From NCBI GenBank assembly GCA_002011475.1, contig MTNP01000037.1, positions 77,246-141,245 on the forward strand: a DNA stretch of 64,000 nucleotides, given 5' to 3'. Shown here piece after piece: positions 25,732-55,179 of the stretch. The notes under the pieces are model-generated. The model saw only the letters and a program-made list of their open reading frames with translations. It was not told the origin of the DNA and did no database searches. The position numbers were made by a program, and so were the translations under genes. The DNA comes from Dehalococcoides sp. JdFR-54 (GTDB lineage Bacteria; Chloroflexota; Dehalococcoidia; JdFR-54). Each line of letters starts with the position of its first letter. Within the stretch, counting starts at the first letter, position 1.

Positions 25732-26038
25732 GTATGAGGTGGTAAGGTATCACGGCCATCCCGAGGCGCCTACCCAGGAGCTGGTGGGCAGACTGGTGTG
25801 GGATGCCGAAAAGAAGCAGCTTTCCTACGAAGCCTGGGATGAGAGGCTGGCGCAGCTCCTGGCCGAGGTCAGGCGCAGGCGGGCGGTAAAACGCTTCGCC
25901 CCTGGCCCCGAGCCGGAGCGGGAAGACGTGGTCGTGGACAGCATCGTGGACGCCCCTATGGACGACCCGAAGTTCATCACTTACCTGGACGACTGGCTCG
26001 CCAACTGGGGCTTCAACCTGGTGGAAATGGAGACATGA
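25724..26038 (+). CDS. hypothetical protein
   Basis: 104-aa ORF with 4-nt overlaps. Confidence 0.4.
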   Translation: MAEYEVVRYHGHPEAPTQELVGRLVWDAEKKQLSYEAWDERLAQLLAEVRRRRAVKRFAPGPEPEREDVVVDSIVDAPMDDPKFITYLDDWLANWGFNLVEMET

Positions 26039-27174: not shown

Positions 27175-30100
27175 GGCTACCACTGAGGGCATGAGCGAAC
27201 TGGAAGAGCTTGCCAGGCAGCCCTTTGGCTCCCCTGGCGGCAAGCTGTGGATGGCACCCCGGATAGCCTCCCTGATACCACCACACAGGATATATGTGGA
27301 GCCCTTTGCCGGGGCTGCCGCCGTCTTCTGGGCCAAGGAGCCGTCTGAGGTGGAGGTGCTGGGCGACATCGACCCCGAGGTGATGTTCGCCTATCGCTTC
27401 ATCCAGAGGGCATCCTCCAAGGAGATAGCCCGGCTCAGGCGCTACGAGTGGCGGCACAGGAGGGACCTGTTTGAGGAGTTGAAGGCAGCCAGACCGAAGG
27501 ACGAGGTGGAGCGCTTCCGTCGTTTCCTCTACCTGCGAAAGGCAAGCTACGGCAGCCGGGGCGTCAACTTCATGGAGGCCAAGCGGGAGCGGGCCATCAG
27601 CCTGGACAGCTTTGAGAGGTGGCAGGAGCGGCTCAAGGGGGTGCACCTGCATACTGGCTCCTATGAGCAACTGCTGGACAGGTATGACGGCCAGGATGCC
27701 TTCTTCTACCTTGATCCCCCATACCCTGGCCACTGGCAGGGGGAGGAGCACGGCTTCACCCAGGAGCAGTGGGATGGCCTCATAGAGAGGCTGAAGAGGC
27801 TCAAGGGTAAGTTCATCCTGTCTCTGTTCAAAGACCTGGCGGGGACGCTGCCCTCTGGCTGGCATACCAGGCGCATCAAGACCCACCGCGCCCTGGGGCA
27901 GGACGATGCAGGCAAGGTGCTCTTCCACTACGAGTACCTGGCGGCCAACTTCCCCCTGGGCGGCAAACTGGAAGCAGAAGACGGACAAGTAGAAGACTTG
28001 CGCTGGGGCGCCAACCAGCCCTTCGGCAGCCCCGCTGGCAAGACCTATCTGGCCAGGCGCATCGCCGCCATGCTGCCTCCCCACAAGACCTATGTGGAGC
28101 CCTTCGCTGGTGGGGCCGCTGTCTTCTGGGCCAAGGAGCCGGTGGAGAGGGAGGTGCTCAACGACATCGACCCCGAGATAGCTTTCGCCTACCGCTTCCT
28201 GAAGAAGATGACCCCGGAGCAGTTCGCCCGCCTCAAGCGCTTCGACTGGGAGCGCCGGCCGGACAAGTTCGAGAAGGTCAAACGCTCAAAGCCCAGGGAC
28301 GAGGTGGAGCGGTTCCATAAGTTCTACTACCTCACCCTGGCCAGCTTTGGCCATGCCCGCAACACCTTTGGCTGGGGCAAGGGCGGCAATGTCATCGACA
28401 TAGACAAGCTGGAGCGCTACACCCAGCGGCTCAAGAACGTGGCCATCCACAACGAAGACTTCGAGCCGGTGGTGAGGCGCTACGATTCGCAGGAGACCGT
28501 ATTCTACCTCGATCCCCCTTATCCGGGCAGGGTGTTCCACGGGCCCCAGTTCACCCTGGAGGACCTGGAGCGGCTGATAAAGGTGCTCAAGGGCATCAAG
28601 GGCAGGTTTGTGCTCAGCCTGGGCACGGAGCATGAGAGGTATCTTCCGGAGTCCTGGTTCGTGAAGCGGGTCAAGGTGCAGCGCAACCTGGTGGACCCCA
28701 GGACGGGGAAGCCCATCCCCTCGGGCTTCGAGATACTGGCCGCCAACTTCACTCCCGGCAGGGAAAGCCTGGAGGCGCTGGAAACCGATGAAGAAGGCGA
28801 GGCCGCGCCCGACGAGGCGATGATCGAGCTCCCCGAAATTACAGACTTCATGGTGATACCCGACTTCATCAGCCTGGTGGGGAGCGCCGTCAAGGGAGAG
28901 GCGCCCAAAGACCTGGACATCCTCATCCGCTCGGCAGCCCGGAGCGAGAGCCTGGAGGTGGCTATCGGGAAGCAGCTTGACCCGGAGAAGCGGGGCTACC
29001 TCCACTTCATCTACGAGCCCGCTGGCCCCCACGACGACTACATCCCTCTGTGGGACCTGGTGGCTTTGAGGAAGCCCGGAATCGAGGTTGTAGAGGTGGG
29101 GCTGAGCAGAGCAAAGGGGCTCGTGCCCGGCAAGCCCTTTACTCCATTAAAGACGGCAGGCGGCTACGGGGAGCTGGAGTTCTCGGTGGACGCCGCCGAC
29201 AAGCTCTGGGAGACCTGGGGCCAGGGATACAAAGACGTGGGCCTCATAGTCCAGGAGAAGTTCGACGGCTACCGGCTCACCCTTCATCGCAAAGGCGACA
29301 GGGTCTTCGCCTTCTCCGAGGATGCCAGGCGAGATATTGTGAGCGCCCTTCCTGGCCTTGAGGAAGACCTCAAGGCCCTACCCGATGGCGACTTCATCCT
29401 GGATTCGGAGCTGCTGCTCTATGCCGAGGAAGCGGTGGAGCTTAATAACCCATACAAGCCCGGCGACAAGATAGAGCGCATGGACATGGCTTCCTTTCTG
29501 GGTAAAAGCCCGGCGGCCAGGTTCCGCGCCCTCTGCCAGGTTTTCGATTGCCTCTACCTGAACGGCGAAGACCTGCACCAGAGGCCCCAGACAGAGAGGC
29601 TGGAGGCGCTGCATAAGCTGCTGAGCCCGGTGGACACCCTCCACCTCAAAGAGGTGGAGAGCAGGCTGGTCCGCAGCAGGGAGGAATTCTTGAAAGCAGT
29701 CAAGTGGGCGGCCTCCAGGCCACACAGCGAAGGGGCCATGGTGAAGGTGGCCGACTCGGACTACCCCCTCACTGGACGCTCCAGCACGATAGCCAAGCTC
29801 AAGAACTTCAAGGAGATAAGGGGCAGGGTGGTCAGTAAGCGGAAGACCGAAGCAGGTGCCTACGTCTATGAGATCGCTCTCTCCGACGGCTCGGTCATCG
29901 GCTCCACCTATGCCACCAGGCTGGAGGCGGAGGTGGGCGACATCCTGGAGGTGCGCGCCGCCGAGATTAAGGTAAAGGAGGAGGATGGCAGGAGGGTCTT
30001 CACCTGGGATAACCCCATCGTGGTCAGCATAAAGCCAAAGGGAACGGCCCTCACCACCCCGGAGCAGGCCGAGGCGATGGCCAGGAAGCGCAGGGGCATG

Positions 30101-30934
30101 ACGGCAGAGGAAGAAGGCGAGACCAGAAGTGAAGCAGCGGAGAGGTTCTGGCGGGAGAACTGGCACAAGTCCTTCCCGCCCTCAGGCAAAGGGGAGTTCG
30201 TTTACCATCACCACTGGCGGGGGCTATCGGAGGAGGAGACAAAGCTATCTGAGGATGAGCTTCTCAAGACCGACCACTCGGTGCATGGTGACCTGAGGTT
30301 GCAGTTTTCCGACGAAGCCCTCTTTGGCTTCACCGTTTTCCTGGGCACCACCGATGAGATGGGGGAAGCTGGCGGAGACCGGTTGGCGAACCTGCCGCCT
30401 GACGATAAGCTCCAGGGGGCCTGGAAGCTGCAGCAGCCTATCGCCTGGCTCAAGGTAGGAAGGGAGAAGCCCCTGGTCACCGCGCCTGGTGAGGTGGGAG
30501 CTACCTCGGAGAAGTATTCCAAGTTCTTCGCCGAGGACTGGGGCACCTACGAGATAGGCGTATGGCGGGAGCACTTCTTCGAGCTTTTCCTTCATGGCAG
30601 GAAGCTCAAGGGGCGCTACACCATCCAGTATGCCCCACTGGGTGGCAGGAGGGTATGGCTCATCGGCAAGCCCAAGGACCAGACGCCCTACGCTGAGGCT
30701 CACGAGCTTGAGGACGTCGTTAAAGAGCTGAAGGGCAAAGGACAGAGATACCTGGTGTGGGCCAGGCCGGGCGAGGAGCCCAAACTAATCGAGGTTGGAA
30801 AGGCCGAACAGCTAACCTGTCCCAAATGCGGGGAGACCCTGGACCCGGGAACCACAAGGCTGGCAAAGCTGAGCGATGATTTCCACGATGTGTTCCGCTG
30901 TGCTCATTGTAGGCACATTTTTAGTCCAAGTTGA
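27080..30934 (+). CDS. multidomain fusion: two tandem Dam-like (D12-class) N6-adenine methyltransferase domains + ATP-dependent DNA ligase (KFDGYR) + LigD-like 3'-phosphoesterase domain + C-terminal zinc ribbon
   Basis: FGSPGGKLWMAPRIASLIPPH...FYLDPPYPG (nt ~27220-27760) and FGSPAGKTYLARRIAAMLPPH...FYLDPPYPG (nt ~28020-28540). Ligase motif I LIVQEKFDGYR at ~29245. PE-like HHHWRG...HGDLRL...DWGTYEIG...LFLHGRKLKGRY at 30180-30700. CPKCG...CAHC at the end. Confidence 0.75.
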   Translation: MKEYPRELYERITREWDPEDKAFLETEPEELEATTEGMSELEELARQPFGSPGGKLWMAPRIASLIPPHRIYVEPFAGAAAVFWAKEPSEVEVLGDIDPEVMFAYRFIQRASSKEIARLRRYEWRHRRDLFEELKAARPKDEVERFRRFLYLRKASYGSRGVNFMEAKRERAISLDSFERWQERLKGVHLHTGSYEQLLDRYDGQDAFFYLDPPYPGHWQGEEHGFTQEQWDGLIERLKRLKGKFILSLFKDLAGTLPSGWHTRRIKTHRALGQDDAGKVLFHYEYLAANFPLGGKLEAEDGQVEDLRWGANQPFGSPAGKTYLARRIAAMLPPHKTYVEPFAGGAAVFWAKEPVEREVLNDIDPEIAFAYRFLKKMTPEQFARLKRFDWERRPDKFEKVKRSKPRDEVERFHKFYYLTLASFGHARNTFGWGKGGNVIDIDKLERYTQRLKNVAIHNEDFEPVVRRYDSQETVFYLDPPYPGRVFHGPQFTLEDLERLIKVLKGIKGRFVLSLGTEHERYLPESWFVKRVKVQRNLVDPRTGKPIPSGFEILAANFTPGRESLEALETDEEGEAAPDEAMIELPEITDFMVIPDFISLVGSAVKGEAPKDLDILIRSAARSESLEVAIGKQLDPEKRGYLHFIYEPAGPHDDYIPLWDLVALRKPGIEVVEVGLSRAKGLVPGKPFTPLKTAGGYGELEFSVDAADKLWETWGQGYKDVGLIVQEKFDGYRLTLHRKGDRVFAFSEDARRDIVSALPGLEEDLKALPDGDFILDSELLLYAEEAVELNNPYKPGDKIERMDMASFLGKSPAARFRALCQVFDCLYLNGEDLHQRPQTERLEALHKLLSPVDTLHLKEVESRLVRSREEFLKAVKWAASRPHSEGAMVKVADSDYPLTGRSSTIAKLKNFKEIRGRVVSKRKTEAGAYVYEIALSDGSVIGSTYATRLEAEVGDILEVRAAEIKVKEEDGRRVFTWDNPIVVSIKPKGTALTTPEQAEAMARKRRGMTAEEEGETRSEAAERFWRENWHKSFPPSGKGEFVYHHHWRGLSEEETKLSEDELLKTDHSVHGDLRLQFSDEALFGFTVFLGTTDEMGEAGGDRLANLPPDDKLQGAWKLQQPIAWLKVGREKPLVTAPGEVGATSEKYSKFFAEDWGTYEIGVWREHFFELFLHGRKLKGRYTIQYAPLGGRRVWLIGKPKDQTPYAEAHELEDVVKELKGKGQRYLVWARPGEEPKLIEVGKAEQLTCPKCGETLDPGTTRLAKLSDDFHDVFRCAHCRHIFSPS

Positions 30935-31042: not shown

Positions 31043-33529
31043 CTACGATACTGACACTGACGCTTTCCAAATGCTTGTTGGAATTGTTACCCTTTCTTTC
31101 TTACCTACTGCAGCAGGATCCTTCACTAAATAGATATTGGGGTTCTCTGGTATTTCAGACACCACACAGAGGTAGAAGGAGTTCCTGTATTTGTCCGCCG
31201 TCTCTGTCTCGTTGCGATCTAGCTCAACATCTCGATCGTGGCTTAGTCCCTTGACTTCTATACGCATAGTTTCACCGCTGTGAGTCTCCGCTTCTATATC
31301 GTAACCGAAGTTCCTTTTATCCACTGGTTTGACGTTTCTATAGGCCGCTTTTAGTTTTTCTATAGCATAATTCATGGCAAATTCTTCCACGCCATTATCA
31401 GGGTCATCCTTGATTCCTCCGTTTTTGAGGAATTGCCGCCATGCTCTTAACTGGTCGTCATTCGTAACGCCAGTAAGATAGTCCACGCTCAGAAAATTGA
31501 GGCCAGATACATATTGCTGACGAGTTTCCCAGTCTCTCTCAGGTTTGAACTCCTTGGGGAAAAACACTTCTCTCGCTGCTCGCACCTCGCCTTGCTTTGT
31601 AAGAACCCAGAATTCCAAGCCTCTCCCGACTTCCTCTCCAAGGATTCGCTGGCATTGAATGGTATATAGTAGCAGGTCGCGTGGCGTAGGTTTGGGTGCA
31701 GTGGTTAAAATCCTGGGTAACAAAGCCTCTTTACAGACTGTGTTCGCGTCTAAGACCGGCACACCGGTCAATCCTGTGAGGAAGCCTCTAATATTTTTCC
31801 GTTCTTCTTCGCTCTTGGCTCTCCCCAGAATATCCGGGTGTAATATTGACCTAGACTTTTGCAGGGTTTCGGTTACATCCTTCAGAATGGGATCAGAGGG
31901 CTGGAAGTCGGGGAGCCATACATTCCTGCCTTCAAGAAGCTCTCCCTCTGCTGTCAACACGATCCTTGAGCTCCAGTAACCCTCCTGGTACCAATAGCCT
32001 TTTCTGCTATAGCTGCCACGCGGGTGCGTCTGGAGCCATAAATATAAGCTCCTGAACCACTCAGCCGCAGCAGAGCTTTTACATTTTTCCTCGAGGAATG
32101 CTTCGTTACTCAGTAGCCCCAGCCGATCTACTTTCTTGAAAGGTGACGAATCTGGTTCTACTACATCGGGAGCTATCACCTCCAAATCAGGTTGCCCACC
32201 CATAGCTGCCGCTATTTGGTCTTTGCTCAAGATACCCATACGTACAAGGTCATCAATGGCTTTCTGATCCTCGTTAACTTTTACTGCTTGTTTAGGCTTC
32301 GTCCAGCCTCCCTCTGCGGTGGGCACACACGTATCTTCTTCCAGATAGGTTTCTACTGGCTCAATCAGTTTAGGCCCGAATAGCTTGTCATGGGCTTCAA
32401 GGCCCTTCGACTTTGTGAACTCAAAGGCAGGCAGAAACTGGTACTTCCATGTCTTGTGATTCTTAAAACAGTTTATGGCCTCCTTGCATAGGTCAGCCAC
32501 CTGCTCTACTAGCCAGTGATTCCATTTCGCTTCATAGTTGATGGCCTCTCGTCCTGGCTGAACAAGAAAATCAGCTTGTATCGGAAACTTAGCGCCACTT
32601 CTTGCCTCACCCAACGGCAAAAAGGAGTATACGCCTCCATACATTGCCCCAGCCTGTAAAGGAGCGAGATTGCCTTCATTGTCAAGTGCAAAAGCTATGG
32701 CTATTTCTCTGCGAGTTACATTGGCTCTATATTCCTGTGTAAGCCTGTCTGCCTTCACCCAATCCGGCACTGAGCAAACTCGCCGGAAGAACCTGAACCT
32801 TTGCTCCTGCCCATTATGCCTGAGAGTTGTGATACCGTCCTCGCTTTCTCCGATGTTCTCCAGAGTCCAGGTTCGTCCGTATACCTCATCTACAATCTCT
32901 ATTCGCTTTAACCAGCGAAGGAATAGATATAGCTCGGTGCTCAGCCTTGTTACTTCCTGAAGCAGGGCTGAATAATAGGTCTCCTCCCTAAAAGGGATGA
33001 TGAACGTTGTCCTCTCGTGTTCGACGGCTTCCGAGGGTTGGTCAATCCAGATGGGTAAGACGTGCCATGGTGTGCGACTGGGGTCCTCCCACTCTTTATG
33101 GTTTCTGTCGAATTTGAATTGGAAGCCACCAGAATATACCTCAGGGCAATCAGTGACTTTAAAAACGGATTTGAATCCTATGCCCAGATATCCCAATGTG
33201 CCTTTTTCCGGCTTCTTTGATGACCTGATGCCACAGAGCGCCTTTACATCGTCTTGGTTAAAGGGACGGCCATTATGTATCACCTTTGCTCTATGCTGGT
33301 TAATTCTTACTTCGAACACACCGAGAGTCTCTAAACCCAAACCAGCATCCTCGGCATTCTGAAGTAGCTCAAGGACAAACCCAGAACTTCTCGTAAATAT
33401 GACTTGGGCGATCAATTTTAGAGCGTTAATATAATCGTCCCATATCCTTGTCCCTTTAGATGCTTTAATCTCCTCCTGGATAGTGTCTATAATTCTCTTT
33501 GCCTCGCGAGGATTCAAACCTACCGCCAT
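31043..33529 (-). CDS. GHKL-type (sacsin/MORC-like) ATPase with a C-terminal DUF3883/PD-(D/E)xK-like domain; low-GC moron
   Basis: N-terminal VLELLQNAEDAG (HATPase_c motif). C-terminal ...YDIEAETHSGETMRIEVKGL (D...E.K). Opposite strand to the flanking phage genes. AT-rich. Confidence 0.55.
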   Translation of the reverse strand: MAVGLNPREAKRIIDTIQEEIKASKGTRIWDDYINALKLIAQVIFTRSSGFVLELLQNAEDAGLGLETLGVFEVRINQHRAKVIHNGRPFNQDDVKALCGIRSSKKPEKGTLGYLGIGFKSVFKVTDCPEVYSGGFQFKFDRNHKEWEDPSRTPWHVLPIWIDQPSEAVEHERTTFIIPFREETYYSALLQEVTRLSTELYLFLRWLKRIEIVDEVYGRTWTLENIGESEDGITTLRHNGQEQRFRFFRRVCSVPDWVKADRLTQEYRANVTRREIAIAFALDNEGNLAPLQAGAMYGGVYSFLPLGEARSGAKFPIQADFLVQPGREAINYEAKWNHWLVEQVADLCKEAINCFKNHKTWKYQFLPAFEFTKSKGLEAHDKLFGPKLIEPVETYLEEDTCVPTAEGGWTKPKQAVKVNEDQKAIDDLVRMGILSKDQIAAAMGGQPDLEVIAPDVVEPDSSPFKKVDRLGLLSNEAFLEEKCKSSAAAEWFRSLYLWLQTHPRGSYSRKGYWYQEGYWSSRIVLTAEGELLEGRNVWLPDFQPSDPILKDVTETLQKSRSILHPDILGRAKSEEERKNIRGFLTGLTGVPVLDANTVCKEALLPRILTTAPKPTPRDLLLYTIQCQRILGEEVGRGLEFWVLTKQGEVRAAREVFFPKEFKPERDWETRQQYVSGLNFLSVDYLTGVTNDDQLRAWRQFLKNGGIKDDPDNGVEEFAMNYAIEKLKAAYRNVKPVDKRNFGYDIEAETHSGETMRIEVKGLSHDRDVELDRNETETADKYRNSFYLCVVSEIPENPNIYLVKDPAAVGKKERVTIPTSIWKASVSVS

Positions 33530-33864: not shown

Positions 33865-34050
33865 GTTTGCCTTTAGACAGTGAGATTTGCTTCTGTCAGT
33901 GTAAGCAGCAAGAGCCTGTCCCAGTTCCTATGTCACTTCAGCCAGGTGCCACGTAACCAAGGGGTCGTGCGAGTCTATCTTTCTGACATCCTGGCTCGGT
34001 CAAGGCCATGAGCGCCTGAGTCGCCGCAGAGCCCCTGACGAATTCGACCT

Positions 34051-34308
34051 TTATACCGCCACATACTCACGGATGTCCACCTGGACGCCAGCGCGGGCAG
34101 CTTCTTCTGCGGTCTGAAGGAGCCGCTCCGTGATTTCCTCCTCTACATACTCCTCCCCGCAGTTCGGGCAGACCCTCGCTGGCACACCCTTAATCACCAG
34201 GGTGGCGCCATCCCGCTCCAGGGTCACTGTAGCCTTGCCGGGACGGGTCTCCGCTTGCCTACAAATAACGCACTTCATTGTCTCCTCCTTCTGAACCCGG
34301 GCTCCCAT
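34051..34308 (-). CDS. YgiT/MqsA-type zinc-finger antitoxin
   Basis: MKCVICRQAETRPGKATVTLERDGATLVIKGVPARVCPNCGEEY matches the YgiT zinc-ribbon pattern. Overlaps the upstream toxin gene. Confidence 0.55.
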   Translation of the reverse strand: MGARVQKEETMKCVICRQAETRPGKATVTLERDGATLVIKGVPARVCPNCGEEYVEEEITERLLQTAEEAARAGVQVDIREYVAV

Positions 34309-34559
34309 TGGGTCAGGTCAGGTTCATATACAGTGATTACAATAGTTTCCTGACCCTCCATGTTCTCCGCAGCTACCACATGGATAGGGCGTGATCCACG
34401 CCATCCGAGCACCAAGTGGCTCGGATAGGGAGTGTCGTTGGGATAATCCTCAATCACCTCTCCTGTCGATAGCACGTGGCGGACATCATCCACACTGATT
34501 CGGCGCTGAAACATACGCTGGATGGCGTGTACACGGAAAACCAGTCGGTCAAAGGTCAC
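34275..34559 (-). CDS. DUF4258-family toxin
   Basis: HAIQRMFQRRISVDDVRHVLSTGEVIEDYPNDTPYPSHLVLGWRGSRPIHVVAA...IVITVYEPD matches DUF4258. It is the toxin-first partner of the zinc-finger antitoxin. Confidence 0.55.
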   Translation of the reverse strand: MTFDRLVFRVHAIQRMFQRRISVDDVRHVLSTGEVIEDYPNDTPYPSHLVLGWRGSRPIHVVAAENMEGQETIVITVYEPDLTQWEPGFRRRRQ

Positions 34560-34809
34560 ACCCTTGCTCCCCCGAGGAGGTCGATCCGGCGATCACCGGC
34601 AAGGGATGGCCCAGTTTGAAGCCGACCAGAATCCAGTCTTCCAGGGTAGAGCGCAGTTCATCCTGGCACTCCCGCAGGGTGGTGCCGAAAGCCACCACGT
34701 CCTTGCACTGAGGAATTCGCCCTGAAAAGGTGCTGTCCACCAGCTTATCGTAGACTGCCTGGGACGAAGCCTGCTCTACATAGTCGGTAAGGACCAATTT
34801 CACACCCAT
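34549..34809 (-). CDS. HicB-like (UPF0150) antitoxin-fold protein; no HicA partner recognised
   Basis: ...IPQCKDVVAFGTTLRECQDELRSTLEDWIL resembles the HicB N-terminal domain. Confidence 0.35.
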   Translation of the reverse strand: MGVKLVLTDYVEQASSQAVYDKLVDSTFSGRIPQCKDVVAFGTTLRECQDELRSTLEDWILVGFKLGHPLPVIAGSTSSGEQGCDL

Positions 34810-34912
34810 AACACGCCCTTGCTTTCCGCCAGCTTAGATTATACCACGAAAGCAGGGAGGGCCCAATTGCTCCCCCTGCCCCAGATAACGCACCAGGCTG
34901 TCTATTCGGCTA

Positions 34913-35401
34913 TCATGCTCCCGCCGCCGCGGGCACGCAGTCGGGATGATAGTAGCCGTTGGCCCTCTTGACCACCAGGGTGCCTCGGGTCATGCGCCCC
35001 TGGCACCCCTTGCAGGTGACCACGGCAGCCACCAGCTTCTGTGGCTCATCATTGGTAGTCGCTGACGCTTGAGCTACCAGTGCCTCCTCTGTGGCTGGCG
35101 TCTCATCCGCCTCAATCGCCTCGCTGGATTCAGCTTCCGTCTCTGTGACCTCGGCCAGCGCCTCGGAGGGTTGGGCCTGGCCAACGGTCACCTCACCCCG
35201 CAGCTCGGCCTCCACCTGGCGGCAGTCCTGAGCGTCCTCCTCGCTGCCCCCGCCGAAGGCCCTGACAATTCCCTTCAGCGTAAGCTCAGGCCAGCTTCGG
35301 GCATGCCGCCTCTTGAGCCGTTCCAGCGCCTGGAAGGTCGGCTCGCTCACCCGGAAGGCGATGACCTTCTCCGCTACTGTCTGCTTTCTTTCCCTTGCCA
35401 T
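34913..35401 (-). CDS. hypothetical protein with a C-terminal Cys cluster
   Basis: Start chosen at the internal ATG preceded by AAGGAGGT 7 nt upstream. 162 aa. Confidence 0.45.
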   Translation of the reverse strand: MARERKQTVAEKVIAFRVSEPTFQALERLKRRHARSWPELTLKGIVRAFGGGSEEDAQDCRQVEAELRGEVTVGQAQPSEALAEVTETEAESSEAIEADETPATEEALVAQASATTNDEPQKLVAAVVTCKGCQGRMTRGTLVVKRANGYYHPDCVPAAAGA

Positions 35402-35406
35402 TGCGT

Positions 35407-35664
35407 TTACCTCCTTCGAGATTTGATTTGGGCTTCGCTGCCCTCTGTCTCTTGCTTCTTTTGCCACCAGGCTTCTACGGAGAGGATGTCGGTGAGGATA
35501 TGGATGTCGCCGCAGTCCACCGTCACAGCGGGGAAGCCGCTTCGGTGCTCCTTCATCTCGACCCTCTCCCCTGCCTTGTAGCGGCGGTGGATCTCCTCGT
35601 AGACCTGGATTTTCTCGGCATCCGGCTTCAGCCTGATGTCCTGCCGCTCTATGCGCTTTGCCAT
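35407..35664 (-). CDS. hypothetical small protein (first gene after conserved leftward promoter motif A)
   Basis: Start at MAKRIERQ, preceded by GAGGAGGTG. 85 aa. Confidence 0.45.
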   Translation of the reverse strand: MAKRIERQDIRLKPDAEKIQVYEEIHRRYKAGERVEMKEHRSGFPAVTVDCGDIHILTDILSVEAWWQKKQETEGSEAQIKSRRR

Positions 35665-35683
35665 CGCTTCACCTCCTCGTTTA

Positions 35684-35724
35684 GCTTCACACACATCCAT
35701 CACTCAGCTTCGCCAGGAAGTCAA
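35684..35724 (-). promoter_or_regulatory. conserved leftward promoter-like motif, copy A (gcttcacacacatccatcactc + ggaagtcaa)
   Basis: 22-nt block identical to 37996-38017. On the minus strand it reads TTGACTTCC...GAGTGATGGATGTGTG. Confidence 0.45.
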
Positions 35725-36487
35725 TAGCCTTCGAGGAGACTTGGTGAGGTCTCCGCTCGGCTAGCTCAAACCCTGCCAGCCCTTTGAGGCAGTTGTCCCT
35801 GGTGGCCTGGTAGCCGCAGCAGGGCTTGAGCGCCCTTACCTCAACATCCTCGCCCAGGACCGACCTGAGCAGGTCGGCCTGGGAGCCGAACCAGAGGGCG
35901 CCCCGCTCCATGTCCTTCGCCACCACCAGGGGCCGGTGGTTACGGCAGAGCCAGATGGCGGGCAGGCGCAGGTCGGCGAAGGCTATGGCGTAATCCCCCC
36001 TGAGCCTGGCCAGGGCTTTCCTGATCCCCCTGGGTCGCACCCTGCCGTTGCTATGGCGGCGCAGCAGCCGGAAGATCACCTCCGAGTCCACCTCCGCCGT
36101 AGCCCCCACCTCTGCTCTAAGCTGCCGATAGTTGTAGATGACGCCGTTGTGGACGCCGAGGATGGGCCCGGCCAGCAGGGGATGGTTGTTGCGGTTGTCG
36201 GCGGGGTCGCCATGAGTCGCCCACCGGGTGTGGCCCACCACGCCGACGGTGTCGTTGTCCACGGCGTCCAGCAGCTGCCAGAATTGGGGCTGCGCCACCA
36301 GCCTGGAGGCGGGGCCAGGCTGCTTGAGGTATTTCGCCACGCCTTGCTTGAGCACGAAGGCCCCCGCTGCATCCCTGCCCCTGATCTCGGTGGCTGCCAG
36401 CAGGGTGGCGAAGTCCTCCCGGATGCCCTCCAGCTCCTGCTCGCTCCTGTTTCGCCTGTCAAGAACGAATCCTGCTATTCCGCACAT
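35687..36487 (-). CDS. class-II (Ntn) glutamine amidotransferase domain protein
   Basis: Begins MCGIAGF (Cys2 nucleophile). ...GHTRWATHG..., NHPL. Start set at the ATG giving MCGIAG. Confidence 0.6.
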   Translation of the reverse strand: MCGIAGFVLDRRNRSEQELEGIREDFATLLAATEIRGRDAAGAFVLKQGVAKYLKQPGPASRLVAQPQFWQLLDAVDNDTVGVVGHTRWATHGDPADNRNNHPLLAGPILGVHNGVIYNYRQLRAEVGATAEVDSEVIFRLLRRHSNGRVRPRGIRKALARLRGDYAIAFADLRLPAIWLCRNHRPLVVAKDMERGALWFGSQADLLRSVLGEDVEVRALKPCCGYQATRDNCLKGLAGFELAERRPHQVSSKAIDFLAKLSDGCV

Positions 36488-36897
36488 GGTGCGCCTCCAT
36501 CGTAAAAGAGATATTTGCCATCCTGGACCTCCCGGGTGCTGAACACCCTGGAGCACATCCTGACCGAAGGCGTGTTGCTCTGCGCCACCAGCGACCTGAG
36601 CTGGCATCCCCTGGCGGCGGCCAGCTCCTTCTTGGCTTTCAGCAGGGCGGTGCCGATGCCCCGGTTCCTGAAGTCCCGCCGCACCACGGTGATGGAGTAT
36701 TTGCTATGCCCATTGGGGCAGGCCGTAAAGCTCAGGCCCACCAGCTCACCGTCGATGCGGTATTCCAGCAGGATGTCGCCCTCCGAGCCTCCCGCCTTGT
36801 AGTAGTCGAAGCTTTTCTGCCTTATGTGGCGGTCGCCGTTGGCCCGGATGAAGCCCAGGTGCTCTGGGCAGACCTGGCTAACCCTGGCAATCTCCAT
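36475..36897 (-). CDS. GNAT-family N-acetyltransferase
   Basis: VVRRDFRNRGIGTALL (motif A). Start at MEIARV. 13-nt overlap with the amidotransferase gene. Confidence 0.55.
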   Translation of the reverse strand: MEIARVSQVCPEHLGFIRANGDRHIRQKSFDYYKAGGSEGDILLEYRIDGELVGLSFTACPNGHSKYSITVVRRDFRNRGIGTALLKAKKELAAARGCQLRSLVAQSNTPSVRMCSRVFSTREVQDGKYLFYDGGAPCAE

Positions 36898-37150
36898 CCT
36901 CGTCCTCCCTGCCCAGGTAGCGGATGAGCTCCGCCCGCTCCAGGCTCGCCAGGAATCGCTCAGCAGAAACGGTATCCAGGGGCTTCCCGTAGACCATCTC
37001 CGTCCGCTCGGCCACCCGACCCTTGTATTCCCCCAGGCTGAGGTGTCTCTCAAACAGGGCCGAGCGCCTCATGGCCCTGACTACCTCAGTGGGGCTATCG
37101 CCACTGAAGCGGTCTCCAGTGAAGGTCATCTCGATAACTATCCTTGCCAT
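36878..37150 (-). CDS. hypothetical small protein within the amidoligase cassette
   Basis: 90 aa from MARIVIEM. Overlaps its neighbours. Confidence 0.4.
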   Translation of the reverse strand: MARIVIEMTFTGDRFSGDSPTEVVRAMRRSALFERHLSLGEYKGRVAERTEMVYGKPLDTVSAERFLASLERAELIRYLGREDEDGDCQG

Positions 37151-37152
37151 CT

Positions 37153-37977
37153 CTACACTCCCTTCCACACCAGCTTGTGGTGCTGAAATAGCCTCCGCTC
37201 CTCGGCGGTGAGCCCCAGGCCCCGGGCCAGCCTGTAGAGCGGGTTTCGGCGGGTCTCCATGGGCTTTATCCCCCGCAGCACCCTGGCCTCGCTGAGGCTC
37301 TTGAGCACCAGCCTCAGGCACAGGGTGACCCAGGCCTTGACATCGGCGGAGCTGAGGGTGCCGTCGAAGTAGCGGAACTCTATGGTGCCCCGGTAGTTGA
37401 AGCTGTGCAGGTTGAGGCCCCGGTAGCGGCTGGGGTGATACTTATGGCTGAATATGCGAGGTAGCTCCTGCCGGGGCACGCCATACCACCGCTCCCAGAA
37501 GCGCTTGAAGGTCTTGGCCTTCATCAGCCCATCGTAGTCGGTCTCCCGGCTGCGGTGGACCTCCTCGATGGGCTTGCAGTAGCGGTAGTGGTTGCCGTTC
37601 CTGCCCCGGTGCTCGGCGTCTCCTCCTCGGGCTATCTGGTAAATCCAGGGCTCGTAGGCCCTGGTGTTCTGCACCAGCCTCTTGATGCCCTCCAGGTCGA
37701 AGCCGCTACCGTCCACGTGGATGTGAATGCTGCACCGCTCGCTCACCCTGGCCCCGTGGCGCTTGAGCAGGCTGAGCACCCGCTCTATCTGGCCGAAGTC
37801 GCCCAGGGTCAATGGGGGCGATACAATCTCGCAGCCGTCGTGCAGGCTGCCGTCGCTGGCTACCTTCCAGCCTCCTGGCAGGGCAAGCTCCCGCCGGGCT
37901 CGCTCGGTGGAGATGCCTTCCACCTCTATCTCCACCCCGAACCGGCGGCTGTCTATGGTGGCACTTCGGTTTGTCAT
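37153..37977 (-). CDS. putative amidoligase (PF12224-like, glutamine-synthetase-like fold)
   Basis: GVEIEVEG...WKVASDGSL...CEIVSPPL...CSIHIHVD matches the amidoligase family signature. Confidence 0.6.
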   Translation of the reverse strand: MTNRSATIDSRRFGVEIEVEGISTERARRELALPGGWKVASDGSLHDGCEIVSPPLTLGDFGQIERVLSLLKRHGARVSERCSIHIHVDGSGFDLEGIKRLVQNTRAYEPWIYQIARGGDAEHRGRNGNHYRYCKPIEEVHRSRETDYDGLMKAKTFKRFWERWYGVPRQELPRIFSHKYHPSRYRGLNLHSFNYRGTIEFRYFDGTLSSADVKAWVTLCLRLVLKSLSEARVLRGIKPMETRRNPLYRLARGLGLTAEERRLFQHHKLVWKGV

Positions 37978-37995
37978 CTCCTTCCTCCGAATCTG

Positions 37996-38037
37996 GCTTC
38001 ACACACATCCATCACTCTGAATCTGGAGGAAGTCAAG
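37996..38037 (-). promoter_or_regulatory. conserved leftward promoter-like motif, copy B (upstream of the amidoligase)
   Basis: gcttcacacacatccatcactc-10nt-ggaagtcaag, followed upstream by gtctttcc as in copy D. Confidence 0.45.
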
Positions 38038-38168
38038 TCTTTCCAGAGCGAATCTGCGGAGGCTCCAGAAAATCCGTTCTGCCTGTTGTGCGTCCGAAAA
38101 GTATTGCTAATGTCACACTTCTCTTGACAAGCGCAGGAGATTTGATATGCTTAGAGTGGGGGTGTGAC

Positions 38169-38702
38169 ATGAAACAAAAAGCGATTTACTTTAGGGCTTC
38201 ACCCGAGCTTGCTTCCCGGGTCAAAGAGCAAGCTGCTAAGAAAGGTGTTTCAGCCAGCGCCGCTGTAGCGGAGTTGGTAGAGGTAGGACTCGAATTTGTG
38301 GACAAGCAGGGAACTATCGAGGACCTTAAGAAGTCCTTGGAGCAAGAGAGGCACGCTCGGAGCATTGCTGAGGGAGAAGTTCAGAGGCTACGGAGGGAGA
38401 AGCAGCAAATACAGGAAGAGACTGGACGGAATTTGCGTATGCTACAAGATTCGTATAATGGGCTGCTTGGACATCTACGCGTGACCGACTTGGCTGTCTG
38501 CCCAAGCTGTCGCCAGATTCTTAGTGCCTACGACGTTATTATCCAAAGAAGGTGCTCCCAATGCAGCATAGCTGTTAGCTTGGGGTCAGTGGCAGATCCC
38601 CAAAGACCTGGCCCGCTGATTAGGGACTTGTTGGCAGTTGTCGGCGGAATAGCAGTATTTGCCGGTATTGTGAACGCCTTGTCTAACAGGGATTCGGCCT
38701 AG
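38169..38702 (+). CDS. ribbon-helix-helix (Arc/MetJ-like) N-terminal domain protein with Cys-rich and hydrophobic C-terminal regions
   Basis: MKQKAIYFRASPELASRVKEQAAKKGVSASAAVAELVEVGL. Candidate promoter TTGACA(38114)-16nt-TATGCT upstream. Low GC. Confidence 0.45.
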   Translation: MKQKAIYFRASPELASRVKEQAAKKGVSASAAVAELVEVGLEFVDKQGTIEDLKKSLEQERHARSIAEGEVQRLRREKQQIQEETGRNLRMLQDSYNGLLGHLRVTDLAVCPSCRQILSAYDVIIQRRCSQCSIAVSLGSVADPQRPGPLIRDLLAVVGGIAVFAGIVNALSNRDSA

Positions 38703-38902
38703 GAGCTTGGGTCACCAGTGGATGGTCGAGAGAAAAGTAGGGCATATAGTTCTCCAAATGCTACTTTTTGACACCACAGTGGGGAACAATTGGCCATTGC
38801 AGGTCATTTTTTGCCTCCCGGTGGGGAGCAGAATGCACACTTTGGAGTGGTGACCCAGCCGCCGGATTTGGGGCGACAATTGGTTGTAAATGGATGTAGG
38901 CC

Positions 38903-39820
38903 GTGTCGTTATTTCACTATGTGAAGGGACGGCTTCACCGCTTAGAGGCCCTAGGGGTGACCATCGGGCCTGGCTTTAGCCTGAGCAGGCTAAGGGGGCA
39001 CCTGGGCGACTTACTGCGGGCGGACTCTGAAGTCTCGCTTGCGGAGATAGTAGGGTCTAGGGTGGGCTATCGTCATGTCTACCTTTCACCAGGATCGCCA
39101 GGGTTTGGGGGTGACATTGATTTAGGCTTCATCCACCGCTCAGAGTATTATAGTGCACAAGTGAAGACCTTTGATATCATGAGCTCCTCCTTGGGCCAAC
39201 GTATTGCCCAGCTATCGAGAAACTTCGACGTTGGCTATGAAGGCTATGGCAACATTTTCTCTGACCGACTTTTTGTGGGCGATACACTGGCTGCTCAAAG
39301 CTTGCGCCGAGTGCCAGGCATTCCTCGGAAAGCAAGTATAGGGGTCGACCGATTCGAGCCATCCATCGAGGATTTGCTACGTGGCGTGTTAAAGATAAGG
39401 AAAGAACTCAGGGCAAAAAGCTGGCAACTCCGGAACGCCCCTGGCTACAAGCTTATTGTGTTCGACATGAGAAGGTCCCATATTGAGCCTGACTTGCTTA
39501 CGAAGACTGTGACCTACGCTCTGACTCATTCGCACGAGTTCGACCATTTGGCTTGCGTGGCCATGCTGTGGTATAACTTTCTGGCCAAAAGCGCTACTTA
39601 CGAAAGCGAAACAATGTTGGTTCCGCTTGCATTCAACGAGCGGTTTAAGTTCGACAGAGGCATCCTATTACCTGCCGTGCCCTATATTCCCGCCAAAGTG
39701 ACCCCATTTACTCTGCCCACACATATGGAGTTCCTCAAAACGGGTTGGCAGAATCTCTTTGCTGTGGAGAAAGGTGTCATCACTATAGATGGCGTGGAGT
39801 ACGGGCCTCTTTTTAGGTAG
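38903..39820 (+). CDS. hypothetical protein (low-GC moron)
   Basis: 305-aa ORF, no recognisable motif. Confidence 0.45.
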   Translation: MSLFHYVKGRLHRLEALGVTIGPGFSLSRLRGHLGDLLRADSEVSLAEIVGSRVGYRHVYLSPGSPGFGGDIDLGFIHRSEYYSAQVKTFDIMSSSLGQRIAQLSRNFDVGYEGYGNIFSDRLFVGDTLAAQSLRRVPGIPRKASIGVDRFEPSIEDLLRGVLKIRKELRAKSWQLRNAPGYKLIVFDMRRSHIEPDLLTKTVTYALTHSHEFDHLACVAMLWYNFLAKSATYESETMLVPLAFNERFKFDRGILLPAVPYIPAKVTPFTLPTHMEFLKTGWQNLFAVEKGVITIDGVEYGPLFR

Positions 39821-39918
39821 CTTACCTCTTATAAAGGCCCCTTGACAAACTTGCGGTTCCGCGATACGCGTAGATCAGAGACCACGCCCGGGAAGTAGCC
39901 CGGAGCGGGCAAAAGGTG

Positions 39919-39959
39919 AGACGAGCTCACTCGGTCGGAGTGGGCTCGTCTTTTTATTT
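39919..39959 (+). terminator. rho-independent terminator (agacgagc-17nt loop-gctcgtct-TTTTATTT)
   Basis: 8-bp stem plus a T-run immediately before the structural module. Confidence 0.5.
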
Positions 39960-39980
39960 GGCCGAGCCCAGGGGAAAAGG

Positions 39981-41090
39981 ATGGCAGAGGAAACAGGACA
40001 GCCGATTCTTGAGGAGCTAACCCAGGAGCTGGAGCAGGCCCACCAGGAGATACTCCGGCTCAAGGGCTACGCCGTGTCCACCGGCCTGGCGTCCTCGGCG
40101 TCCGCCGAAGGCAAGGTGGTCAGGCTGCGGGGGATCGCCATCTCCGAGGGCACCCACAACGGCAAGTACTACCCCTGGGAGGAACTCTCCAGGGACTCCT
40201 TTGTGGACTCCTTCGTGGGGAAGCCGGTGGTGGTGGACCACAAGGAGGGGCTGCCTTCAGAGGTAGGGCTGGTCAAGGCGGCACGGAGAGACCCCGAACA
40301 GAAGGCCATCCTGGTCGACCTGGAGATATACGACGAGGCCCGTGGCAAGCAGGTGCTCTACCTCATGGAGAACAGCCGTCCCGTGGGCCTTTCGGTGCAG
40401 GTATGGGAGAGAGTGTCGCACGAAGACGGAAGGGAGGTGGCCCGAGACCTGGAGCTCCAGCACCTGAGCCTGACCATGGACCCCGCCGACAAAGAAGCCC
40501 GCATCGTGGCCAAGCTGAGCCAGAGCGGGCAGGTCAAGGAGGCTGAAATGACCGAGGAGACGAAAGAGGCAGTCCAGAACCCTTTGACAGGCCTTCGGGC
40601 TGAGGCCCTCGAGGCCGAAGGCTCAGGGCAGACCCTGAAGGTTGACGACTTTGAGAGGCTGGCCAGCGAAGTGAGAGAGGATGAGGTGCTCATCGCCACC
40701 CGCATCCCGCTAGCTTCACTGGCCCAGCATGGCTACCCCTACTACGCCTATCCCAGATACGGGAGGGCGCCAGGCCCTGACCTGGCTCAGAAGGTAGCCG
40801 AGTTGGAGAAGCGGGTGTCTGCCCTGGAGGAGACGGTGAAGAAGCTCTCCTCCAAGTCCGAGGCCGAGCACGAGGCGGCCGTGACCGAGGAATCTGCAGC
40901 CAGCGCCGAGGCGCAATCCCCCCAGGCGGAAAACCCTCCCGCCGAGGAGCCCGGAGCACAGGTTGAGGAAATGTCCTCCAGGGAGGACAAGCCCAGCGAC
41001 GAGGAGCGCACCCGTGAGGCCCTTTCCCAGCTCCACCCCGCTGACCTCATCTTCCTGGAGCAGATCGCCAAACGGAGGGAGAGGGTATGA
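39981..41090 (+). CDS. prohead protease (HK97/S78-like) with a C-terminal scaffold-like acidic/coiled-coil region
   Basis: GIAISEGTHNGKYYPWEEL...GKPVVVDHK...GLSVQ pattern. Located upstream of the capsid gene. Confidence 0.55.
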   Translation: MAEETGQPILEELTQELEQAHQEILRLKGYAVSTGLASSASAEGKVVRLRGIAISEGTHNGKYYPWEELSRDSFVDSFVGKPVVVDHKEGLPSEVGLVKAARRDPEQKAILVDLEIYDEARGKQVLYLMENSRPVGLSVQVWERVSHEDGREVARDLELQHLSLTMDPADKEARIVAKLSQSGQVKEAEMTEETKEAVQNPLTGLRAEALEAEGSGQTLKVDDFERLASEVREDEVLIATRIPLASLAQHGYPYYAYPRYGRAPGPDLAQKVAELEKRVSALEETVKKLSSKSEAEHEAAVTEESAASAEAQSPQAENPPAEEPGAQVEEMSSREDKPSDEERTREALSQLHPADLIFLEQIAKRRERV

Positions 41091-55120: not shown

Positions 55121-55145
55121 GCCCTCCTGTGCTTCTTGCCTTGCC

Positions 55146-55179
55146 CACATTCATCGCTCTCCTCCCGCAGGAAGTCAAG
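55146..55179 (-). promoter_or_regulatory. conserved leftward promoter-like motif, copy C (upstream of the tyrosine integrase)
   Basis: cacattcatcgctc...caggaagtcaag. Confidence 0.4.

Follow-up and report, generated by a model that had tools for sequence, protein, structure and literature searches.

Two enzymes, an amidoligase and a glutamine amidotransferase (GATase), are encoded together in a prophage of an uncultured Dehalococcoidia bacterium, and the question raised by this locus is which reaction they would carry out together and on what. The locus lies within the stretch of 64,000 nucleotides analysed here, referred to below as the window. Pairs of an Amidoligase_2 protein with an amidotransferase or a gamma-glutamyl(amine) cyclotransferase-like (GGACT) protein rank with the most widespread enzyme pairs of phages whose function is so far only predicted; annotations tend to class them vaguely as metabolic genes or cell-wall modifiers, and they are present in therapeutic LUZ24-like Pseudomonas phages. 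Amidoligase–GATase genes are annotated in LUZ24-like Pseudomonas phages, phiEco32, OM43 phages, Arthrobacter phage Salgado and Aeromonas phage LAh_6. The computationally predicted neighbourhood to which a preliminary description of this DNA had appealed is thus known and widespread in phages; Iyer, Abhiman, Burroughs and Aravind reportedly predicted such phage neighbourhoods of Amidoligase_2 and class-II amidotransferase genes in 2009. Tagging of nucleotides, cell wall or proteins, as the preliminary description suggested for the cassette, is likewise a prediction of the literature.

A compact operon within a prophage

The four genes for the amidoligase, a 90-aa protein (small90), a GNAT acetyltransferase and the GATase all lie on the minus strand (Table 1), and the gene calls publicly available for the source contig (GCA_011170395.1, DUEO01000001.1) list the same product for each of them. 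The preliminary description had proposed a tight operon, and this is evident at the junctions, with a 2-nt gap between the amidoligase and small90 genes, a 20-nt overlap between small90 and GNAT and a 13-nt overlap between GNAT and GATase. It had also assigned only these four genes to the interval 35407–37977; the four are there, but the interval includes a fifth, p85, and the block conserved in relatives continues past p85 to p162. The dN/dS values across the cassette genes are 0.2–0.46, and all of them are under purifying selection.

Table 1. Genes and promoter-like motif copies of the cassette and the integrase region (window coordinates)
Feature	Position	Strand	Remark
Amidoligase_2, 274 aa	37153..37977	-	PF12224, E=2.3e-37
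small90, 90 aa	36878..37150	-	starts 2 nt past amidoligase stop codon
GNAT acetyltransferase, 140 aa	36475..36897	-	PF00583, E=4e-9
Stand-alone class-II (Ntn) GATase, 266 aa, MCGIAGF start	35687..36487	-	PF13522, E=3e-18
p85, 85 aa	35407..35664	-	gene call on source contig
p162, 162 aa	34913..35401	-	last gene of block conserved in relatives
Tyrosine integrase	54227-55150	-	PF00589, E=2e-36
Promoter-like motif copy A	55146..55178	-	upstream of tyrosine integrase gene
Promoter-like motif copy B	38004..38036	-	TTGACTTCCT-N13-GATGGATGTG
Promoter-like motif copy C	35692..35724	-	within last codons of GATase gene

The family assignments made earlier agree with profile matches to PF12224 for the amidoligase (129.6 bits, cut-off 22; also phrog_2443, E=6e-37), PF00583 for GNAT (37.1 bits, cut-off 20.7) and PF13522 for the GATase (66.4 bits, cut-off 27). 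In NCBIfam, the only matches of the six cassette proteins were generic GNAT and GATase ones below threshold, and the region 34000–40000 showed no DNA similarity to any of 50,697 phage records.

The prophage location is supported by genes for a portal, a Mu-F-like protein, a capsid, a tail tube, a tape measure, a tyrosine integrase and a serine recombinase, and the cassette indeed occupies the opposite strand within it. The slot directly downstream of the cassette is variable and holds defence and toxin–antitoxin genes, namely TmtA in the window, AIPR in L017 and an SMC-like gene in L018; the window neighbour is an 828-aa protein matching TmtA (Tiamat) at E=3.5e-97 in PADLOC 2.0. HicB/DUF4258/MqsA-like genes also adjoin the window cassette, and among the other genes of this prophage are those for a Mom-family protein (E=3e-47) and a D12 methyltransferase–ligase fusion. 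Elsewhere in the window, a tRNA-Gly call (ARAGORN, 24252–24329) is doubtful, lying inside coding sequence and without Rfam support.

The ligase and the amidotransferase keep their catalytic residues

Residues G14, E16, E18, D42, E50, H85, H87, N189, E200 and R202 of the amidoligase are invariant in an alignment with 36 homologues, and the motifs GxExE, D..S, E-x-x-SP, HxH, N and ExR, comprising metal, ATP and carboxylate residues, are all kept. Loss of the carboxylate- or ATP-binding residues, which the preliminary description had named as grounds for abandoning its assignment, was therefore not found. The protein has a glutamine-synthetase-like fold and is a predicted ATP-dependent carboxylate–amine ligase of the glutamine synthetase/gamma-glutamylcysteine ligase (GCS2) fold. 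Judged by its sequence, it is no orthologue of glutamine synthetase: NCBIfam gave no match, and a sequence search against the PDB returned chance matches only. In IMG/VR, 485 relatives of the window ligase were found. Among the viral-contig scans, the narrower alignment A5 was productive, while the wide alignments A3 and A4 and single remote small90 relatives yielded almost nothing.

Residues 2–194 of the GATase align with the glutaminase domain of E. coli GlmS. Its catalytic Cys directly follows the initiator Met and is aligned to GlmS Cys1, and RGxDxAG (RGRDAAG), HTRWATHG, HNG and D-SEV (VDSEV) are kept in alignment with the GlmS motifs. The 266-aa protein has no fused C-terminal synthase domain of the PurF, GlmS, AsnB or GltS style, so that it is a stand-alone glutaminase-type domain rather than a canonical amidotransferase; the GlmS, AsnB and PurF models of NCBIfam match it by the N-terminal domain only, far below their cut-offs. 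It is closer by sequence to GlmS (NCBIfam, 102 bits) than to EgtC, scoring 27.8 bits on the EgtC equivalog TIGR03442 against a cut-off of 218.65. The closest GATase of a cultured phage, from an Arthrobacter phage, is 35.5% identical, and dN/dS for the gene is 0.31–0.38. The classical ammonia-channelling class-II enzymes (PurF, GlmS, AsnB and GltS) are synthase-fused, and the stand-alone class-II enzymes whose function is known to us, EgtC and yeast Dug3, hydrolyse gamma-glutamyl amides.

A small non-catalytic partner accompanies the ligases

Searches of Pfam, PHROGs, NCBIfam and PADLOC placed the product of the second gene in no family, and 22 members of the small90 family gave nothing consistent in Pfam and PHROGs. 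Our comparison defines an unnamed family of about 75–110 aa that is associated with amidoligases and adjoins them in unrelated phages. In Elusimicrobia, the small90 domain is fused to an XRE-type HTH directly after the ligase, and the two genes form a module amid unrelated housekeeping genes; the window small90 itself has no HTH domain. The small90 family is thus a recurrent, non-catalytic third partner of these ligases, a finding that is new here.

The preliminary description had raised the possibility that the 90-aa protein is the substrate to be tagged, and nothing in the family bears this mark: no Lys, Asp or Glu position is conserved, and the C-termini differ from member to member. The acidic, Cys-containing tail of small90 is explained by gene overlap, being encoded by the start signals of the following gene (ribosome-binding site and start codon) read in another frame. 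On these three grounds we rejected small90 as a Pup- or LysW-like tag or carrier.

Partner exchange, lineage-specific additions and joint decay

Co-conservation of the amidoligase and the GATase, whose failure would have spoken against the proposed cassette, is borne out by relatives of the GATase with 64, 49 and 45% identity, each of which lies just downstream of an Amidoligase_2 gene. Amidoligase_2 and GAT-II (class-II amidotransferase) genes are found here on the same strand, in a phage and co-conserved, as in a neighbourhood of the Iyer type, and the cassette is an operon of the already-known phage amidoligase and glutamine amidotransferase kind. The conservation does not extend to the four genes as a unit. 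GNAT occurs at none of 80 other viral amidoligase loci; it is present in L015–17 and L022–25 only; L018 lacks it, as does the related contig L032, whose amidoligase is 79% identical to that of the window. GNAT is therefore a lineage-specific addition to the cassette. Its acetyl-CoA motif A (R/Q-x-x-G-x-G/A) reads RNRGIG, its nearest solved relatives are of the YpeA type (E~2e-3), and its dN/dS is 0.26–0.46. Like GNAT, with which it co-occurs, p85 is an addition specific to the lineage, being 79–96% identical in L017 and L022–25 and absent from L018 and L032; Pfam, PHROGs, NCBIfam and PADLOC all left it without a family, and its dN/dS is 0.25–0.35. p162 is kept in L017, L018, L022–25 and L032 at 55–89% identity (dN/dS 0.28–0.33); it ends in a zinc-ribbon-like CxxC...HPxC, and its family matches are weak (LIM-like, E=0.04; phrog_12353, E=3e-4).

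The gene after the ligase in viral amidoligase loci is GGACT in 62 of 80 and GAT-II in 3 of 80, with both in none (these counts are not independent, the 80 loci forming 15 clusters at 60% identity). Ligases about 61–63% identical carry either the one or the other, and the order amidoligase–small–GGACT in L037 and L038 corresponds to amidoligase–small–(GNAT)–GAT-II in the window. This alternation of GAT-II and GGACT in the slot after the ligase points to gamma-glutamyl-amide chemistry. Strict equivalence of the two is weakened by their co-occurrence in other phages: Arthrobacter phage Salgado has a weak GGACT-like match beside its amidoligase–GATase genes, a Vibrio phage is annotated with both GAT-II and GGCT-like under one match, and both genes are present in Phage-ZRK32.

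The cassette has decayed in L018–20: the ligase lacks residues 1–99, the GATase gene carries a frameshift, and neither GNAT nor p85 is left, while p162 next to them remains intact. Ligase and GATase thus decay together in these relatives.

A promoter-like motif common to the cassette and the integrase gene

Copy B of the motif stands about 26 nt before the ATG of the amidoligase gene, from which a GGAGG ribosome-binding site separates it, and copy C about 27 nt before that of p85. The pattern TTGACTTCCT-N13-GATGRATGTG occurs three times in the window, each on the minus strand, and its 20-mer core has 2 exact occurrences against 0 expected. Copy B is part of a larger repeat unit at 37984–38036, a 53-nt direct repeat 79% identical to its copy at 35672–35724. 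Upstream of the amidoligase, the copy B motif is kept in L017, L021 and L022–24, and copy C is kept in L017 and L022–25; in L021 the same motif stands before both the integrase and the amidoligase. The conserved promoter-like motif of the preliminary description is therefore real, repeated and kept in relatives; a sigma-70 consensus scan did not call it, and its -10 part is not canonical. A known RNA element was rejected, as Rfam gave nothing at gathering score over the whole window, and folding of the motif gave no convincing structure (z -0.95 for copy B and -2.5 for copy C).

The cassette and integrase genes are probably co-regulated in this lineage. Since the motif is common to the integrase gene, the cassette probably belongs to a lysogeny or accessory programme rather than to virion production.

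Proposed mechanism and alternatives

We tentatively favour a reading in which the ligase, at the expense of ATP, forms a gamma-glutamyl-type amide that the Ntn enzyme removes or processes. The cassette would be an accessory module of enzymes carried by a temperate siphovirus that has Mu-like head genes and is integrated in a Dehalococcoidia genome; the module would be transcribed leftward from the promoter-like motif, and its conserved core consists of the ligase, the small non-catalytic partner and a stand-alone Ntn enzyme of the class-II amidotransferase type. The ligase would use ATP to activate a glutamate-type (gamma-)carboxylate as an acyl phosphate and then couple it to an amine on a host or phage target, perhaps a small amine or a protein lysine. 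The Ntn enzyme, in which all glutamyl-holding residues are kept, would then cleave the gamma-glutamyl amide again, a role that GGACT genes would fill in most sister cassettes. GNAT may acetylate a free amine of the target or of an intermediate, and small90 would act as an adaptor or regulator of the ligase rather than as its covalent substrate. An ammonia-donor role of the Ntn enzyme would suit its glutamine-binding residues just as well, and a cycle of addition and removal has no obvious pay-off for the phage. A wider version of the proposal, which we regard as unlikely as it stands, is that reversible gamma-glutamylation operates in temperate and lytic phages alike, with Amidoligase_2 as writer, the small90 family as adaptor or specificity factor and GAT-II or GGACT as eraser; host amines (e.g. 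polyamines) or protein lysines would be marked for host manipulation or lysogen immunity, and GNAT would add an acetyl mark in this lineage.

A possible but less probable alternative is a split glutamine-dependent amidotransferase, in which the Ntn subunit hydrolyses glutamine and feeds the ammonia to the ligase, and the ligase amidates an ATP-activated carboxylate. Its target would be a cell-envelope component, a peptide or a protein, in a Glu-to-Gln type of reaction like that of MurT/GatD on peptidoglycan; GNAT would cap an amine, the whole resembling N-acetylglutaminylglutamine amide synthesis, and the biological outcome would be a modified surface and the exclusion of superinfection, as the literature predicts. 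The complete Cys1 glutaminase machinery, nearest to that of GlmS, is consistent with this, as are the ligase fold, which is that of the ammonia user glutamine synthetase, and the tight, conserved ligase–GATase pairing. The adjoining prophage defence cargo would suit a lysogen function, and the citing passages of later papers credit Iyer et al. 2009 with predicting a superinfection-preventing cell-wall modification. It leaves unexplained, however, why GGACT, which is no ammonia supplier, occupies the same slot in most sister cassettes; the cassette contains neither a membrane protein nor an envelope-targeting signal, and free glutamate and ammonia would make for a futile cycle. Furthermore, we know of no class-II amidotransferase that acts as a separate subunit.

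The HTH-fused small90 directly after the Elusimicrobia ligase is a typical antitoxin-like architecture, and the cassette itself lies beside HicB/DUF4258/MqsA-like genes and a TmtA homologue, is dispensable and decays in one lineage. These observations would suit a toxin–antitoxin-like or abortive-infection module, in which the ligase modifies an essential component of the host or of an invading phage, small90 neutralises or regulates it, and GAT-II or GGACT reverses the modification. We consider this improbable, as none of the PADLOC 2.0 models matched any of the six cassette proteins, amidoligase–GATase pairs are common in strictly lytic phages, and the gene order, with three or four enzymes, is unlike that of classical pairs.

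An auxiliary metabolic cassette that boosts the nitrogen or amino-acid metabolism of the host (glutamine and glutamate turnover) has been proposed for the similar gene set of Phage-ZRK32, and published claims also concern OM43 phages, but these rest on annotation, not on enzymology. The ligase not being a glutamine synthetase orthologue, and small90, GGACT and GNAT not fitting an assimilation pathway, such a role is very improbable here. Phage DNA hypermodification, in which the cassette would amidate a base or add an amino acid together with the Mom-family protein and the Dam-like methyltransferase of the same prophage, may draw on the amide carried by the Mom product, yet is the least credible of all, as the cassette has no DNA-binding, glycosylase, base-kinase or transferase component (Pfam, PHROGs and NCBIfam), and lies on the strand opposite the Mom gene with a motif common to the integrase, and as most sister cassettes pair the ligase with GGACT; nothing in our analysis points to nucleotides or DNA.

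Comparison with known systems

The comparison narrows the function in three ways, through the alternation in the slot after the ligase, the non-catalytic partner family and the probable co-regulation with the integrase, and the resulting hypotheses are testable in cultivable phages with the pair. The known phage amidoligase–GATase pairs comprise the same two families, adjacent and on one strand, as in the window. In LUZ24, LAh_6 and Zobellviridae, the pair is joined by an ATP-grasp enzyme and a COOH-NH2 ligase, neither of which is found among the cassette proteins, and the GATases are larger (486–846 aa). By comparison, the window has a minimal 266-aa GATase together with GNAT, p85 and small90, and its cassette is a prophage accessory block opposite the virion genes rather than an early-gene cluster. 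The Amidoligase_2 cassettes with GGACT/AIG2-like genes in phages and prophages have ligases of the same clade as that of the window (28–36% identity) and share its gene order and tight spacing, with the small-partner family common to a subset; their third gene encodes a cyclotransferase, not an Ntn amidotransferase, and they carry no GNAT.

Pairs of a gamma-glutamyl ligase with a remover are known in EgtA–EgtC (ergothioneine), PuuA–PuuD (putrescine) and BtrJ–BtrG (butirosin), all of which serve chromosomal biosynthesis or catabolism of known substrates. EgtA shares its fold class with the window ligase, and EgtC belongs to the stand-alone class-II amidotransferases; on the EgtC model score given above, there is no orthology with the window pair. 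Pup of the PafA/Dop system is a disordered tag with a conserved C-terminal Gly-Gly-Gln/Glu, whereas small90 is predicted to be folded and lacks such an end, and no PafA or Dop model of Pfam or NCBIfam is among the reported matches of the ligase. MurT/GatD and Ngg/AsnO follow the same logic of ligase plus glutaminase, the latter also with a GNAT, but with different folds: a Mur ligase and a class-I GATase in MurT/GatD, an ATP-grasp and an AsnB-type enzyme in Ngg/AsnO. The NAGGN amidotransferase model scores 18 bits against a cut-off of 570.1. Set against these systems, what is new here is the small90 family, the alternation of GAT-II and GGACT in one slot, a GNAT confined to one lineage, and a promoter-like motif that also stands before the integrase gene.

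Organization and integrity of the amidoligase cassette

The cassette consists of six closely packed genes on the minus strand (34913–38036). The preliminary description recognized a four-gene operon comprising an amidoligase, a 90-aa protein (small90), a GNAT acetyltransferase and a class-II glutamine amidotransferase (GAT-II), and this observation is correct, since its coordinates, families and junctions were confirmed and the independent gene calls of the source contig (NCBI assembly GCA_011170395.1) are identical for the cassette genes. The ligase stop codon is followed after 2 nt by the small90 start, small90 and GNAT overlap by 20 nt, and GNAT and the amidotransferase by 13 nt. The interval first assigned to the operon, 35407–37977, holds the four named genes but also contains the gene of an 85-aa protein (p85), and the conserved block reaches that of a 162-aa protein (p162).

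Features of the cassette and its prophage in the window
Feature	Position	Strand	Details
Large serine recombinase	4285–5994	-	prophage left side
Sigma-factor-like protein	6504–7064	+	prophage-encoded; phrog_351, E=1.5e-15
Mom-family protein	23583–24335	+	PF25680, E=2.9e-47; between Mu-like portal and Mu-F-like head protein
Metallo-beta-lactamase-fold gene, then giant D12 adenine methyltransferase–ATP-dependent DNA ligase fusion	26035–30934	+	
Tiamat TmtA homologue	31043–33529	-	828 aa; E=3.5e-97; Pfam SACS / NOV_C; low-G+C patch (0.48)
MqsA-antitoxin-like	34051–34278	-	toxin-antitoxin-type domain; between cassette and TmtA gene
DUF4258	34275–34559	-	toxin-antitoxin-type domain; between cassette and TmtA gene
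UPF0150/HicB-like	34549–34809	-	toxin-antitoxin-type domain; between cassette and TmtA gene
p162	34913–35401	-	162 aa; no family; C-terminus zinc-ribbon-like
p85	35407–35664	-	85 aa; no family
Class-II glutamine amidotransferase domain	35687–36487	-	266 aa; MCGIAGF start; PF13522, E=3e-18
Motif copy	35692–35724	-	within last amidotransferase codons, before p85
GNAT	36475–36897	-	140 aa; PF00583, E=4e-9; motif RNRGIG
small90	36878–37150	-	90 aa; no family
Amidoligase_2	37153–37977	-	274 aa; PF12224, E=2.3e-37
Motif copy	38004–38036	-	~26 nt before ligase ATG
Tyrosine integrase	54227–55150	-	prophage right side
Motif copy	55146–55178	-	before integrase gene

All six genes show dN/dS values of 0.18–0.46 relative to L017 and L022, two other contigs with related cassettes (protein identity 79–96%). 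The ligase retains every residue invariant in 36 homologues (G14, E16, E18, D42, E50, H85, H87, N189, E200 and R202), so the objection that it might have lost its conserved residues fails. The amidotransferase, which lacks an acceptor domain, can be aligned to the E. coli GlmS glutaminase domain and retains Cys1, RGxDxAG, HTRWATHG, HNG and the Asp of VDSEV.

A recurrent small partner of the amidoligase

A word-index search found small90 only within the window's lineage, and a full profile search recovered 31 remote relatives of 74–110 aa. Both relatives with readable contigs lie directly after an Amidoligase_2 gene; family member P0167 is located between a ligase and a gamma-glutamyl(amine) cyclotransferase-like (GGACT) gene, and P0173 overlaps the ligase stop codon. 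In addition, our local HMM of the family matches the ORF after the ligase in four Elusimicrobia genomes (L003, L004, L005 and L009), with the Amidoligase_2 gene preceding one for a 141-aa protein that combines a small90-like domain (residues 1–76) with an XRE-type HTH (87–124), as at L009 278–1573. The housekeeping genes surrounding these two-gene modules are unrelated and differ between genomes, and neither GAT-II nor GGACT was found near the module loci.

Pfam and PHROGs gave no match to the family, and the predicted alpha/beta fold of small90 found no convincing structural neighbour. Conservation among 35 members falls mostly on core residues, and on Y42 and R49; no conserved Lys, Asp or Glu was found, and the C-termini are variable. 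The acidic, Cys-containing tail of small90 could be mistaken for a tag, but its codons serve, in another frame, as ribosome-binding site and start codon for the overlapping next gene. These features speak against small90 being the tagged substrate, a question raised in the preliminary description, and we conclude that it is a recurrent, probably non-catalytic partner of these ligases rather than their covalent substrate.

Partner exchange and co-conservation

We scanned the best 80 of 485 IMG/VR loci encoding ligase relatives with local HMMs; these form only 15 clusters at 60% identity, and the counts are therefore not independent events. A GGACT-like gene stands just downstream of the ligase, usually within 100 nt, in 62 of the 80 loci, 10 of which also carry a small90-family gene. 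The window's order of ligase, small protein and GAT-II occurs in three loci, and two have only a small90-family gene, with the contig ending nearby; altogether the small90 HMM matches 15/80. GGACT and GAT-II never share a locus (0/80), and ligases with only 61–63% mutual identity differ in which of the two they accompany. The closest relatives outside the lineage, obtained in a separate search, likewise carry two GGACT genes.

An Amidoligase_2 gene stands just before each of the amidotransferase relatives at 64, 49 and 45% identity, which come from a Dehalococcoidia-like element, from soil or other contigs and from marine phage contigs of Tara Oceans. Among cultured phages, the pair is also present in Arthrobacter phage Salgado (genes 98–99), Aeromonas phage LAh_6 and a Zobellviridae phage. 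Co-conservation thus holds for the ligase–amidotransferase pair, but not for GNAT, which is confined to the window's lineage (the window, L015–17 and L022–25) and absent from the related contig L032 (ligase 79% identical) and from all of the 80 surveyed viral loci. Furthermore, joint decay is seen in L018–20, which come from three samples: ligase residues 1–99 are lost, the amidotransferase carries a frameshift, both GNAT and p85 are missing, and the adjacent p162 is intact. This pattern argues for a single shared function.

Candidate functions of the cassette

To our knowledge, characterised members of the ligase fold activate the gamma-carboxylate of glutamate as an acyl phosphate. Gamma-glutamyl amides are the substrates cleaved by GGACT and GGCT enzymes. 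Among class-II amidotransferases, the classical ammonia-channelling ones (PurF, GlmS, AsnB and GltS) have their acceptor domain fused, and the stand-alone ones of known function that we are aware of (EgtC and Dug3) hydrolyse gamma-glutamyl amides. Given this background and the exchange of GAT-II for GGACT, the most economical reading, which we put forward tentatively, is a cassette for installing a gamma-glutamyl-type amide on an amine and for its later removal or processing. The ligase would form the amide on a target amine, the Ntn-type amidotransferase would remove or process it, and GNAT, in the window's lineage, would contribute an acetyl group.

The main rival, which we consider less likely, is a glutamine-dependent amidotransferase split into two subunits, which would amidate a carboxylate. 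Such a split enzyme would account for the GlmS-like glutaminase and would fit a published prediction of cell-wall modification and superinfection exclusion, but leaves the GGACT alternation unexplained. A toxin-antitoxin-like module, consistent with the HTH fusions of the small90 domain and with the gene neighbourhood of the cassette, is improbable. Nitrogen auxiliary metabolism and DNA hypermodification are weakly supported.

A promoter-like motif shared with the integrase

The motif TTGACTTCCT-N13-GATGRATGTG occurs in three copies in the window, all on the minus strand, and is kept in relatives; in L021, another contig with a related cassette, it precedes integrase and ligase alike. Read as a promoter, it offers a -35 hexamer (TTGACT) separated by 17 nt from a non-canonical -10, and a consensus promoter scan did not call it. 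We take it to be a putative shared promoter or operator, which suggests that the cassette may be expressed together with lysogeny functions. The prophage's sigma factor might read the non-canonical motif before the integrase, amidoligase and p85 genes. In L021 (57–1203) and L032 (3434–5512), the amidoligase gene is immediately preceded by a tyrosine integrase gene of the same orientation; in the window the two genes are 16 kb apart and have the motif in common.

The minus-strand repeats at 37984–38036 and 35672–35724 carry CTTCCTCC / CTTCCT, complementary to the downstream GGAGGAAG / AGGAGG ribosome-binding site, so that a read-through transcript could mask this site. Folding gives these repeats weak z-scores of -0.95 and -2.5, respectively.

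Prophage setting and variable slots

The cassette resides in a prophage of roughly 51 kb, an approximate extent, which is possibly two nested elements. To the left of its recombinases lie proB and proA, and to the right a type I/IIG restriction-modification gene (55619–58300). The prophage encodes an AEP-type primase, a UvrD-like helicase and a sigma factor, as well as a Mu-like portal, Mu-F-like protein, capsid, tail tube, tape measure and tail tip. The cassette, located between head genes, is oriented leftward, opposite to the rightward virion genes. Its G+C content (0.63) is the phage's own, and the cassette itself is conserved phage backbone.

The Mom-family gene suggests that the phage modifies its own DNA, and the portal/Mom-family/Mu-F-like order is repeated in L022 and L023. 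ARAGORN called a tRNA-Gly (TCC) in the Mom-family/Mu-F-like ORF overlap (24252–24329, +); Rfam at gathering score found no tRNA there, and the call is thus doubtful. In relatives, the metallo-beta-lactamase, D12 methyltransferase and DNA ligase domains share one ORF of ~1300 aa, an arrangement that is unusual among head genes.

In L022–24, the convergent methyltransferase-ligase gene directly follows the six cassette genes; in the window, the cassette is followed by the HicB/DUF4258/MqsA-like genes, a trio also present in L017 and missing from L022–24, and the TmtA homologue. Since the TmtA slot holds an AIPR gene in L017 and an SMC-like ATPase gene in L018, the downstream side of the cassette borders a hot spot of variable defence genes. 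Two low-G+C genes that separate the cassette's promoter-like motif from the head genes (38169–39820, +), encoding 177 aa (weak family matches) and either 252 or 305 aa according to the start chosen, are missing from L022–24 and thus mark a second variable insertion. Another low-G+C patch encodes a TPR protein with a CAP12/Pycsar-effector-type TIR domain (18639–19727, +; E=1.5e-24), probably a further phage-carried defence gene.

Comparison with known neighbourhoods

The ligase–amidotransferase neighbourhood has reportedly been known since 2009. It is annotated in many phage genomes, and none of the papers searched reports an experimental function for it. What is new here is the minimal pair joined by the lineage-specific GNAT and p85 among the head genes of a Dehalococcoidia prophage. 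The findings we regard as most useful are the small partner family, the alternation of GAT-II with GGACT and the motif that cassette and integrase gene have in common.
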